From contig CAWCMR010000015.1 of the NCBI GenBank assembly GCA_963796685.1, positions 352,001 to 416,000 of the forward strand: 64,000 bases of DNA, given 5' to 3'. Shown here piece after piece: positions 16,823-19,781 of the stretch. The notes under the pieces are model-generated. The model saw nothing but the letters and a program-made list of their open reading frames with translations. It was not told the origin of the DNA and made no database searches. A program made the translations under genes and the position numbers. Every line of letters starts with the position of its first letter. Within the stretch, counting starts at the first letter, position 1. The DNA comes from an uncultured delta proteobacterium. Its GTDB lineage: Bacteria > Myxococcota_A > Polyangia > Fen-1088.

Positions 16823-17875
16823 GAGGGTGACTTCCCTTATGTAGCACATCGATCGGCTAGACGGTCAACCCGTATTGAGCGTGGTCGAAGCAAGACCTCG
16901 CCTGTCGAAATCCCGCCTGGCACGGTACGCGACAGCCTTGAGCTGGAGCGGGCGATGGAGTGGCCCGCTTTCCGTCCTCCAAGCACGCGAAGGCTGCGCC
17001 TGGTTTTGCCAGGGCCAGAGCGCGCGAGGCCGAGCGAAGCGAGCGGGGTGGTGGGTGGTGGTGGCGGGTAGGGGCCGAGGGTTTGGCGAGGCCGCGCGCA
17101 GCGCGGGGGGTGGCAAGCGGGGTGGCGGGTGCCGAGCAGGAGGGTATGGGAACCCTCCGAGGGATCCCATCACCCGCGTAGGCGAAGGCGAGCTTTGCTC
17201 GGCTCCGCCAGAGCGCGCGAGGCCGAGCGAAGCGAGCGGGGAGGAGGGTGGCGGGTAGGGGCCGAGGGTATGGGAACCCTCCCAGGAACCCTCCCAGTAC
17301 GGCCGCCGGGGCGAAGGCCCGGATCCTTCAGGCGTGAAACGTGACAGCCCCTCACCCGCCTCGCTGCGCTCGGCGACCTCTCCCCGCTTCGCTTCGCTAC
17401 GCGGGGCGAGGTGTTTCAGGTCAGGGATCCCATCACCCGCGTAGGCGAAGGCGAGCTTTGCCCGCCGGAGCCAGAGCGCGCGAGGCCGAGCGAAGCGAGC
17501 GGGGAGGAGGGTGGCGGGTAGGGGCCGAGGGTATGGGAACCCTCCCAGGAACCCTCCCAGTACCGCCGCCGGGGCGAAGGCCCGGATCCTTCAGGCGTGA
17601 AACGTGACAGCCCCTCACCCGCCTCGCTGCGCTCGGCGACCTCTCCCCGCTTCGCTTCGCTACGCGGGGCGAGGTGTTTCAGGTCAGGGATCCCATCACC
17701 CGCGTAGGCGAAGGCGAGCTTTGCCCGCCGGAGCCAGAGCGCGCGAGGCCGAGCGAAGCGAGCGGGGAGGAGGGTGGCGGGTAGGGGCCGAGGGCATGGG
17801 AACCCTCCCAGTACCGCCGCCGGGGCGAAGGCCCGGATCCTTCAGGCGTGAAACGTGACAGCCCCTTGTATCTTA

Positions 17876-18140
17876 CGGGGGACTGGCTCGCTCTCGCTCG
17901 CAGTCCCCCGGTCCCCCCTCGCTTCGCCCAGCAAAGCTGGGCTACGCTCGCCCCCAAAGGCGAAGGAGCACGACGAGATTCAACGGCACGACAGACCGAT
18001 GCCCCTCAGGTCACAAAGACCGTGGGTGAGCGAGGGTCGTCGTGTCGACTTTCACAAGCAGCCCGAACAGATGAGAGGGCCTCGAGCCCGCATACTCCGC
18101 AAGGCTGGGCATACCAAGAGCAGAAGTCCTTCGCGAAAGG
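17876..18140 (+). ncRNA. Predicted bridge RNA of the IS110 element
   Basis: Two stem/internal-loop/hairpin domains whose loops match the target (GCCCCT, GGGTGAG) and the donor (ACAGATG, GCAAG); ends approximate. Confidence 0.8.
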
Positions 18141-18145
18141 AGCCC

Positions 18146-19096
18146 GTGACACCAACAGCTGACACATTCGTAGGTATCGACGTCTCCAAGGCCACGCTCG
18201 ACGTCCATGTCTTGCCGGCCAAAAGAGCCTGGTCCACCCCCAATCAAGACAACACGGTGCGCGCTCTTTGCAAAGAGTTGGCCGCCCTGAACGTCACCCT
18301 CATCGTTCTTGAGGCCACCGGTGGACTCGAACGACGCGTGCTTGCGGCGCTCCTCGCTGCCAACCTGCCCGCTGTCGTCGTCAACCCCAGACGCGTTCGC
18401 GACTTCGCCAAGGCCAACGGCTGTCTCGCGAAGACCGATGCCCTGGACGCCGCCATGATCGCTCTTTTCGCCGAACGAATACGGCCACCCGTCCGCCCGC
18501 CTGTCGACGCAGAGACCCAGGAGCTTGCCGCCCTTCTCGCCAGGCGCAGGCAGGTGGTCGACATGATCACTGCCGAGAAAAACCGTCTCAGCGCTGACCC
18601 TCCCTCCAAGCGCGTGCAGAGGGCCATCCGCAGGACCATCTCCTACCTCGAAAAGCAGCTCGACGAGGTGGACAACGACATCGACACGGCCATCGGCAAT
18701 TCCTCGGTCTGGAAAGCCAAGGACGACATCATCCAAAGCGTTCCAGGAGCTGGCCCCGTCCTCTCTCGCACCATCCTGTCCCATGCCCCTGAGACTGGAA
18801 CCCTCAACCGCAAGCAGATCGCAGCCCTCATCGGTGTTGCTCCACTCAACCGGGACAGCGGCACCCTGCGCGGCCGCCGCATCATCTGGGGCGGCCGCAC
18901 CGAAGTCCGCAACGTCCTCTACATGGCCACCCTAGCTGCCATACGCTTCAACCCAGTCATCGCCAGATTCCACGCTCGGCTAGTCGCCGCAGGAAAGCTC
19001 AAGAAGGTCGCCATCGTCGCCTGTATGCACAAGCTGCTCACCATCCTCAACGCCATGTTGCGCTCTAACTCGCGCTGGCAAACCACGGAGATTTGA
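18146..19096 (+). CDS. IS110 family DEDD recombinase/transposase
   Basis: AGGAG RBS then GTG; GIDVSK, LEATG, KTDALDA (DEDD), SVPGAG, LNRDSG catalytic Ser, [10 protein letters not shown]. Confidence 0.97.
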
Positions 19097-19781
19097 CCTT
19101 GACTAGGAACACAGATGCTCACCCGCCTCGCTGCGCTCGGCGACCTCTCCCCGCTTCGCTTCGCTATGCGGGGCGAGGTGTTTCAGGTCAGGGATCCCAT
19201 CACCCGCGTTGGCGTAGGCGAGCTTTGCTCGCCGGAGCCAGAGCGCGCGAGGCCGAGCGAAGCGAGCGGGGAGGAGGGTGGCGGGTAGGGGCCGAGGGTA
19301 TGGGAACCCTCCCAGTACGGCCGCCGGGGCGAAGGCCCGGATCCTTCAGGCGTGAAACGTGACAGCCCCTCACCCGCCTCGCTGCGCTCGGCGACCTCTC
19401 CCCGCTTCGCTTCGCTACGCGGGGCGAGGTGTTTCAGGTCAGGGATCCCATCACCCGCGTTGGCGTAGGCGAGCTTTGCTCGCCGGAGCCAGAGCGCGCG
19501 AGGCCGAGCGAAGCGAGCGGGGAGGAGGGTGGCGGGTAGGGGCCGAGGGTATGGGAACCCTCCCAGTACGGCCGCCGGGGCGAAGGCCCGGATCCTTCAG
19601 GCGTGAAACGTGACAGCCCCTCACCCGCCTCGCTGCGCTCGGCGACCTCTCCCCGCTTCGCTTCGCTACGCGGGGCGAGGTGTTTCAGGTCAGGGATCCC
19701 ATCACCCGCGTTGGCGTAGGCGAGCTTTGCTCGCCGGAGCCAGAGCGCGGGAGGGTATGGGAACCCTCCCAGGGTTCCCAT

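Follow-up and report, generated by a model that had tools for sequence, protein, structure and literature searches.

An IS110-group insertion sequence with a predicted bridge RNA in the tandem repeats of an uncultured myxococcotal bacterium

The element, its insertion site and its recombinase

The stretch of DNA analysed here, referred to as the window, comprises 64,000 nucleotides of the forward strand (positions 352,001 to 416,000) of contig CAWCMR010000015.1, from an uncultured delta proteobacterium (Myxococcota_A; Polyangia; Fen-1088; assembly GCA_963796685.1). Between two CT dinucleotides it holds an element that interrupts a host tandem repeat with a period of 251-263 bp, and that consists of a long noncoding left end, a recombinase gene and a short right end. 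We regard this element, at 17867-19119, as an intact insertion sequence of the IS110 group equipped with its own bridge RNA, a reading to which we assign a probability of roughly 0.93. Its parts are listed below in positions of the window.

17858-17866, plus strand: left half of the target, ACAGCCC (17858-17864), followed by the left CT core (17865-17866)
17867-19119, plus strand: whole IS110-group element, 1253 bp with the right-hand CT counted, recognised from the identity of its copies, with edges set by comparison with empty sites
From 17867, plus strand: left tip of the element, TGTAT, read directly
17869-17874, plus strand: putative -10 half, TATCTT, of a promoter existing only in the circle, read directly; its TAT is conserved
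17876-17942, plus strand: 5' hairpin module with hairpins at 17876-17910 and 17926-17942, from a single-sequence fold; both hairpins are kept in the related element L116
17984-18047, plus strand: target-binding stem-loop, with basal stem 17984-17997/18035-18047 and apical hairpin 18009-18021, from covariation
17998-18006, plus strand: left target guide GATGCCCCT, whose effective part, GCCCCT, equals the target's top strand
18024-18030, plus strand: right target guide GGGTGAG, reverse complement of CTCACCC
18031-18032, plus strand: target-loop handshake bases CG, assigned by the pairing rule in the available part of PMC11208158
18061-18110, plus strand: donor-binding stem-loop, with basal stem 18061-18065/18106-18110 and apical hairpin 18077-18089 (GGGC/GCCC), helices 4 and 5 of the comparative structure
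18067-18075, plus strand: left donor guide ACAGATGAG, whose first seven bases, ACAGATG (18067-18073), equal 19111-19117 in the right end
18092-18105, plus strand: right donor guide, ATAC (18092-18095) and GCAAG (18099-18103) with handshake bases GC (18104-18105), complementary to CT-TGTAT
18146-19096, plus strand: recombinase gene, 316 aa, GTG start after AGGAG (18138-18142), from Pfam domains and alignment with IS621
19097-19119, plus strand: right end, 23 nt, with the -35 sequence TTGACT (19099-19104), the donor left half ACAGATG (19111-19117) and the CT core (19118-19119)
19120-19124, plus strand: right half of the target, CACCC, read directly and in the flanks of copies

The edges of the element are fixed, because empty sites could be compared with the occupied one. 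The junctions read ACAGCCC-CT followed by TGTATC on the left, and ACAGATG-CT followed by CACCC on the right. With 279 nt of noncoding DNA on the left (17867-18145) and 23 nt on the right, the element has the long left and short right ends of the IS110 group; it has no terminal inverted repeats, and a two-nucleotide core stands on both sides, CT flanking 7/7 copies while the empty sites hold a single CT. A preceding sequence-only reading had already delimited the element and its two loops, and its coordinates for the boundaries, the target loop and the donor loop all agree with the sequence, the element proper being 17867-19119. The same reading had listed six empty sites in the window, at 7768, 13719, 17344, 17607, 19362 and 19613. 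All six are exact for the 11-mer GCCCCTCACCC, the span truly covered by the guides, which occurs six times in the window against 0.10 expected. The uninterrupted 14-mer ACAGCCCCTCACCC occurs five times against 0.01 expected, but the site at 13719 reads GGTGCCCCTCACCC and departs from it by three mismatches. The host repeats and the empty sites, located by the 11-mer search, are as follows.

17160-17866, no strand assigned: host tandem repeat, period 263, left of the insertion, with empty sites at 17347-17357 and 17610-17620
19118-19754, no strand assigned: host tandem repeat, period 251, right of the insertion, with empty sites at 19365-19375 and 19616-19626
7771-7781, plus strand: empty target site, exact match to the 11-mer
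13722-13732, plus strand: empty target site, exact for the 11-mer, with its three mismatches to the 14-mer on the left side

The 251-bp host repeat was also present in 12/12 other searched genomes of the genus and was rare outside the genus.

The recombinase gene was confirmed as a member of the IS110 family with DEDD and Tnp domains and a length of 316 aa, as proposed earlier. Both PF01548 (DEDD_Tnp_IS110; residues 9-149, E 2.7e-23) and PF02371 (Transposase_20; residues 194-276, E 9.6e-17) match above their curated cut-offs. Residues D12, E56, D98, D101 and S238 align opposite D11, E60, D102, D105 and S241 of IS621, which are named as catalytic in the available part of PMC11208158 (the chain numbering of the IS621 structure in PDB is shifted by two), and all five are invariant across 14 aligned homologues. 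Among solved structures, the best-scoring relative is the ISCro4 transposase (9t56; E 2.9e-31, 112 bits, residues 8-308), which was compared by protein only, followed by the IS621 transposase (8wt6; E 1.2e-26, 97 bits, about 300 residues). The protein search returned at least 8000 proteins at E <= 1e-20, the best 120 of them at 65-99% identity. A frame of 413 aa from 17855, present in a mechanically produced list of open reading frames (ORFs), was set aside; the start of the 316-aa frame is preferred because the Pfam match begins at residue 9, because homologue lengths fit (mostly 310-343 aa among the best 120 listed), and because AGGAG precedes the GTG at 18146.

The sequence-only reading had called the element an orthologue of IS621. 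This stands as far as membership of the same group is concerned, but the term is loose, the protein match is distant and the element is a separate one. Isoforms, in the style of ISfinder, are near-identical in protein and DNA. The element is neither IS621 nor an isoform of it, with a distant protein and with guides and target that differ.

The bridge RNA and its guides

The structure of the left end was taken from comparison among relatives, because the fold of the single sequence only weakly beats shuffled ones. For this comparison 80 genomic loci were retrieved, with recombinases of 51-68% protein identity from Dehalococcoidia, Nitrospira, Gemmatimonadales and others. Segments from the left tip to the gene were aligned, after exclusion of upstream stretches shorter than 250 nt and of one locus without the anchor motif (L075). 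The resulting alignment, A2, holds 49 of the 64 distinct segments; seven were left out by eye for poor alignment (L006, L009, L010, L043, L056, L065, L070) and eight as apparent near-duplicates (L022, L042, L049, L054, L059, L061, L073, L077).

In the consensus of the 49 sequences, a unit made up of basal stem, internal loop and apical hairpin occurs twice. Paired cells make up 96.2%, against 84.3 +/- 0.5% in shuffled alignments, and 19/25 pairs are changed on both sides, against 10.5 +/- 1.6, with none of 500 shuffles reaching the observed values. When the 3' partners are slid by 1-3 columns, pairing falls to 34-52%. Helix 1, in the target-binding stem-loop, shows compensatory change in 11 of its 12 pairs. 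A covariance model built on the structure, R1, matched exactly seven copies in the genome of origin, which it does by construction, the window being in its seed; it also matched 32/32 loci left out of the seed, and all 15 segments omitted from A2 were later matched as well. The covariance-model check suggested by the sequence-only reading has been run, and the comparative structure shows the two-loop architecture of a bridge RNA, with strong covariation. Three further donor-loop pairs offered by RNAalifold (columns 102:143, 104:140 and 105:139), which are probably guide-to-guide complementarity, were dropped and are absent from the tested structure.

Ahead of the two loops lies the 5' hairpin module, of which L116 retains both hairpins with changes on both arms. 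Some genomes of the same bacterial family lack the remainder of the element but carry the module (approximately 17869-17957, element positions 3-91) alone, as a roughly 90-nt repeat that at times stands in tandem (loci L128, L129 and L132; genomes G013 and G009). It has 13 matches in G013, where the target of the element does not flank it.

Judged by its letters, the target loop appears to encode the host site on both sides, including the core. The right target guide, as previously claimed, is the exact reverse complement of CTCACCC, and the apical hairpin between the two guides reads GGTC-ACAAA-GACC (18009-18021). The donor loop, in the same way, would encode the circle junction ACAGATG-CT-TGTAT, with the exception of the left core positions. 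Its repeat of ACAGATG and the pairing of GCAAG with CTTGT through one G-T were both read correctly at the outset; in addition, ATAC is complementary to GTAT. Taken together, ATAC and GCAAG point to a split pairing such as has been reported for IS621, in which pairing of the right donor guide is divided into two parts (PMC11208160). The motif (G/A)CAAG is conserved in A2.

The relation between guides and insertion sites was examined across the relatives. Left tips were located by the motif CTTGTA, guide blocks by alignment column, and right tips by the left donor guide of each element together with CT. Four loci without CTTGTA and 16 with gaps in the guide columns were dropped, leaving 56 rows, and 48 of these, with both flanks and a CTTGTAT start, gave 38 distinct guide pairs. 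The right target guide predicts 4.53 of the 5 bases after the core, while 2000 permutations gave 1.76 +/- 0.18 with a maximum of 2.42. The left target guide predicts 4.53 of the 7 bases before the core, against 2.64 +/- 0.17 and a maximum of 3.29 upon random re-pairing. By position, the left-guide match is at chance at 1 and 2 (0.26 and 0.13), reaches 0.58 at 3 and stands at 0.76-0.97 at 4-7. Furthermore, 30 loci of one relative (of 34 matches) in genome G001 all follow ...CAA(G/A)TCT, and 27 of these 30 copies read ...CAAGTCT followed by GAACA at a fixed offset, as the guides of that relative predict.

A further regularity concerns the bases 3' of the core-binding part of the right guides. 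In IS621, according to the available part of PMC11208158, these bases, once strands have been exchanged, pair with positions 6-7 of the partner DNA, and handshake pairing with the cognate DNA blocks exchange. In the relatives, the first such base of the target loop, equivalent to C 18031, pairs with donor position 7 in 38/38 cases and with target position 7 in 0/38, and the donor-loop base equivalent to 18104 pairs with target position 7 in 36/38 and with donor position 7 in 0/38. In the window, C 18031 is complementary to donor G7 but not to target C7, while G 18032 could pair with either target C6 or donor T6. It had been claimed that this CG can pair with the donor TG but not with the target CC; the claim holds at position 7, but its second part fails for G 18032.

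IS110 elements were formerly viewed as relying on the protein alone for recognition of the target. On that view, the left-end structure could be a mere regulatory leader, or an antisense-controlled 5' untranslated region of the recombinase mRNA. This explanation can draw on the available part of PMC3300014, where a small RNA, sX15, and an antisense RNA, asX7, are described at a homologous structure in Xanthomonas and no guide function is proposed, as well as on the fact that RNA-DNA pairing at the present locus is deduced and not observed directly. However, in 38 relatives the loop sequences covary with the flanks and the pairing of the stems persists, and a leader that does not guide has no reason to encode its own insertion site on both strands or to obey the handshake rule. 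We consider such a leader very improbable.

Copies, circle promoter and known relatives

The genome of origin (G000) measures 7.3 Mb in 26 contigs and carries six copies that are 100% identical over all 1253 bp, together with a seventh that is split at element position 55/56 by an intron. All seven stand between a left (G/A)CCCCT and a right CACCC, while the bases before the left motif differ among them (AAA, CTA, ACA, GCA, ACA, CTG, CTG). Genome-wide, the 11-mer is found 121 times where base composition predicts 17.6, and by eye it sits in at least two families of repeats resembling repetitive extragenic palindromes (REPs). The same element, 99% identical, is present in two sister genomes, with seven full copies in G003 and one in G002; flanks were read for two of the G003 copies and for the G002 copy, and these three follow (G/C)CCCCT and precede CACCC. 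The sequence-only reading had fixed in advance that other copies should occupy the same CT, and insertion at unrelated sites had been named as what would count against it; the seven copies of this genome and the three sister copies all lie between (G/A/C)CCCCT and CACCC.

Alternatively, the element could be a fossil, that is, a bridge-RNA insertion sequence in structure only, immobile, its copies having multiplied as the host repeat was duplicated. That repeat has itself undergone tandem amplification, many left-end fragments are degraded and some derivatives are internally deleted, and the circle junction was unseen in the read runs examined, all of which would fit this explanation. On the other hand, passive duplication is at odds with six identical copies with open frames that have differing left flanks (AAA, CTA, ACA, GCA, CTG) in two repeat families, with the full copies of the sister genomes, whose three read flanks again differ, and with the retention of every catalytic residue. 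We therefore regard an immobile element as unlikely, and an intact element with its own bridge RNA as the better description.

The intron in the seventh copy is a group II intron of about 2.07 kb, which runs antisense to the element and lies directly behind the first hairpin of the left end. Domains of a reverse transcriptase and a maturase are encoded in it, Rfam RF02001 and RF00029 both match it, and it is found twice:

G000 C11:75849-77923 (approximately 1250-3324 of locus L135), antisense to the element: group II intron copy 1, from domain and Rfam matches
G000 C25:1543397-1545471: group II intron copy 2, at the same insertion position and with the same adjoining sequence

Related elements with other guides were also encountered in the same bacterial family. 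L116 (G016 C613) and L115 (G010 C156) share 68-69% DNA identity with the element, and their different guides match different sites. L116, from another genus of the same bacterial family, has the left guide GTCAACCCT and the flank CCTAACCCT followed by CTCCC; judging from flanks inspected by eye only, its landing site appears to be shifted onward by a few bases within a REP-like repeat of the same kind, which would be a case of natural retargeting. In a wider sense, the many close relatives with differing guides (51-99% protein identity) make up a natural retargeting series.

Joining of the right end to the left end would bring TTGACT (19099-19104) and TATCTT (17869-17874) together across a spacer of 17 nt. 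Among 39 distinct relatives, TTGAC followed by T, A or G stands at exactly this spacing in 27, and TAT... occupies the -10 place in 39/39; in the linear context of the element no promoter-like site was found. At the level of sequence, this is consistent with a split sigma-70 promoter that is rebuilt across the circle junction.

By analogy with IS621, the following cycle can be proposed. The element would leave as a circle, and the joining of its right end to its left end would create the sigma-70 promoter TTGACT-17 nt-TATCTT, from which the left end would be transcribed into a bridge RNA of about 240 nt. This RNA would bind the 316-aa DEDD/Tnp recombinase. Its target loop would engage the host site through GCCCCT, paired to the bottom strand, and GGGTGAG, paired to the top strand of CT-CACCC, while the circle junction ACAGATG-CT-TGTAT would be bound by the donor loop. 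Insertion of the element between GCCCCT and CACCC would then follow from recombination at the CT core. We infer RNA production, circle formation and present activity from this likeness.

Several observations weigh against an intact element with a working bridge RNA. In the left target guide, the first three bases, GAT, mismatch the ACA of the target, so that the guide match claimed earlier holds for GCCCCT but not for its leading bases; because positions 1-2 match at chance in the relatives, this is typical of the clade and not a defect. The core positions of the left donor guide, AG, mismatch CT. Donor-side matches in the relatives arise by construction, as the search for the right boundary used them, while the target-side tests are independent of it. 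The folding of the left end, which had also been suggested, recovered the stems but did so weakly (z = -2.0, with 6 of 200 shuffles folding as well), the support coming from the relatives, and the minimum-energy fold pairs the two target guides with each other. Searched at a permissive threshold, Rfam gave no family on the plus strand of 17000-20000. Soil metatranscriptome contigs cover 17939-18090, but they are unstranded, differ in 3-7 letters and may stem from DNA carry-over or from relatives. Finally, the joint of right end to left end expected of a circle was absent from the four read runs searched. Two RNA runs reach very high depth at 17884-17971, the most likely source of which is a separate short repeat resembling the 5' module and not expression of the element.

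The sole Rfam match in that interval was RF02234 (sX15) on the minus strand, which aligns end to end with 17974-18125 at 29.4 bits, below its gathering score of 55. Conversely, the bridge-RNA model matches the sX15 type locus on plasmid pXCV183, on the strand opposite to sX15, with 61.7 bits and E 7e-13:

NC_007507, 116397-116523 (1898-2024 of locus L081), minus strand: match of the bridge-RNA model at the sX15 type locus

According to the available part of PMC3300014, the antisense RNA asX7 lies on the strand that the model matches. It may be that the Rfam family sX15 is the reverse complement of an IS110 bridge RNA and was modelled on the wrong strand. A 98-aa ORF beside the Xanthomonas locus had no Pfam match, so no remnant of a recombinase is evident in it.

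The element resembles IS621 in many respects. Both have the same two Pfam domains, the five catalytic residues and a CT core; in both the bridge RNA, a predicted one in the present element, lies in the left end and has a target and a donor loop, each with a 5' side equal to the top strand and a complementary 3' side; and they share a handshake with the non-cognate position 7, a split circle promoter, putative here and in IS621 rebuilt on excision (PMC11208160), and a target in REP-like host repeats. They differ in the target, which is GCCCCT-CACCC for the element and ATCAGGC-CT-AC for IS621, in an effective left guide that is shorter than that of IS621 (about 4-5 bases plus the core), in an effective right guide of 5 bases plus the core compared with the core plus 2, and in the left end, whose 279 nt include an additional 5' hairpin module some 90 nt long, compared with an RNA of 177 nt. 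The donor sequence of IS621 given in the sequence-only reading has no occurrence in the main text of PMC11208160, though the figures and supplements may contain it. ISPpu9 and ISPpu10 of Pseudomonas putida, likewise of the IS110 family, insert in repeated extragenic sequences that exist in many identical copies, according to the available parts of PMC12288879 and 10.64898/2026.03.19.712850; a small RNA gene lies downstream of the ISPpu9 transposase there, and the likeness to the present element is one of description only. Overall, the element shows every testable defining feature of the IS110 group and is an ordinary but complete member of it.

Left-end relics and the guide-coding DNA

Besides full copies, G000 and G003 contain 14 left-end fragments, 11 of which end at element positions 136-142. 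In G003 all seven end at positions 136-141. In G000 four of seven end at positions 138-142 and the other three at 43, 61 and 106. Element positions 139-140 (window 18005-18006) are the CT of the DNA encoding the left target guide. The relics recorded in G000 are:

C25:1109421-1109562
C8:212939-213081
C25:234099-234236
C25:1543315-1543396

Two of the G000 relics read ...GATGCCC-CT-CACCC and continue into the host flank, and the 14-mer of this joint, GATGCCCCTCACCC, has four occurrences in the genome. A contig of soil DNA joins 18003 to 19120 through the same joint; it may come from the source sample and so is not independent. In G003, a full copy (L120; C21:13327-14718) starts directly after the ...GATGCCC-CT of a fragment and ends in ...ACAGATGCT followed by CACCC. 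Another copy (L121; C14:10-665) has the same start, its contig ending before the right end of the copy; the two share their left flank and may represent one event.

These structures could be explained if the DNA that encodes the guide were itself a working target of the element, a proposition that we regard as evenly balanced. The internal site GATGCCC-CT-CAGGT (17998-18011) agrees with the left guide at 9/9 positions and with the right guide over the core and two further bases. This equals the right-side pairing of IS621, whose natural length is 4 bp (PMC11208160). Insertion or recombination at the internal CT would nest copies, strip everything rightward and leave solo left ends of 140 bp, and the relic junction GATGCCC-CT-CACCC would in turn be a perfect landing pad for another copy.

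It is also possible, though we hold it only tentatively, that the 140-bp relics arose by deletions independent of the recombinase, through slippage or microhomology, and that the guide-coding DNA is not targeted. The relic junctions are indeed mixed, reading GATGCCCCTCACCC, GATGCCC-ACCC, GATGCCCC-ACCC, GATGCCCC-GCCC and GATGC-TCACCCC, and thus varying by 1-3 bases, in a region with a run of C that is prone to slippage. This explanation would also accommodate the three G000 fragments that end elsewhere and the relative in G001 (30 loci out of 34 matches), for which no relics were found (0/36 occurrences). Yet 11 of 14 ends fall within positions 136-142, microhomology with the right junction amounts to CTCA only, and the full copy of L120, placed precisely at the guide-coding CT, is what insertion directed by the guides should yield. 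The internal site of the G001 relative lacks the extra right-side match; because that relative has no relics, self-targeting is not a general effect.

Among the titles and abstracts listed by a literature search on the subject, none describes insertion into guide-coding DNA. A tandem duplication of partial IS110 modules has been reported (10.64898/2026.08.14.744561), the term 'target-binding loop' being absent from the available part of that text, and recombination at half-matches is treated in the available part of 10.64898/2026.08.31.748434. Such half-match recombination could underlie the formation of the relics.

Two internally deleted derivatives stand at normal target sites and resemble miniature inverted-repeat transposable elements. 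One (L124; G003 C43:75161-75355) retains 141 nt of the left end and 57 nt of the right, its deletion fusing the guide-coding CT with another internal CT. The other (L127; G002 C2:825781-825953) retains 125 nt and 43 nt, respectively.

In regard to the significance of these findings, no new mechanism of bridge recombination is involved. Already in 2024, bridge RNAs were predicted across the family, for 85.7% of catalogued IS110s, with covariation on thousands of pairs (PMC11208160), and the element may already figure in published lists of such predictions. What it provides is one well-resolved natural example for a family that is used as a tool for programmable DNA insertion, with guides, target, donor, handshake bases and split promoter all directly readable in it. 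If the guide-coding DNA is truly a target, bridge-RNA elements would have a built-in route to self-inactivation, which would constrain the guide and loop-closing sequences that can evolve. Self-targeting would also suggest a natural failure mode that is maybe relevant to guide design, and solo left ends stopping at the guide would be a genomic signature that can be searched for across the family.

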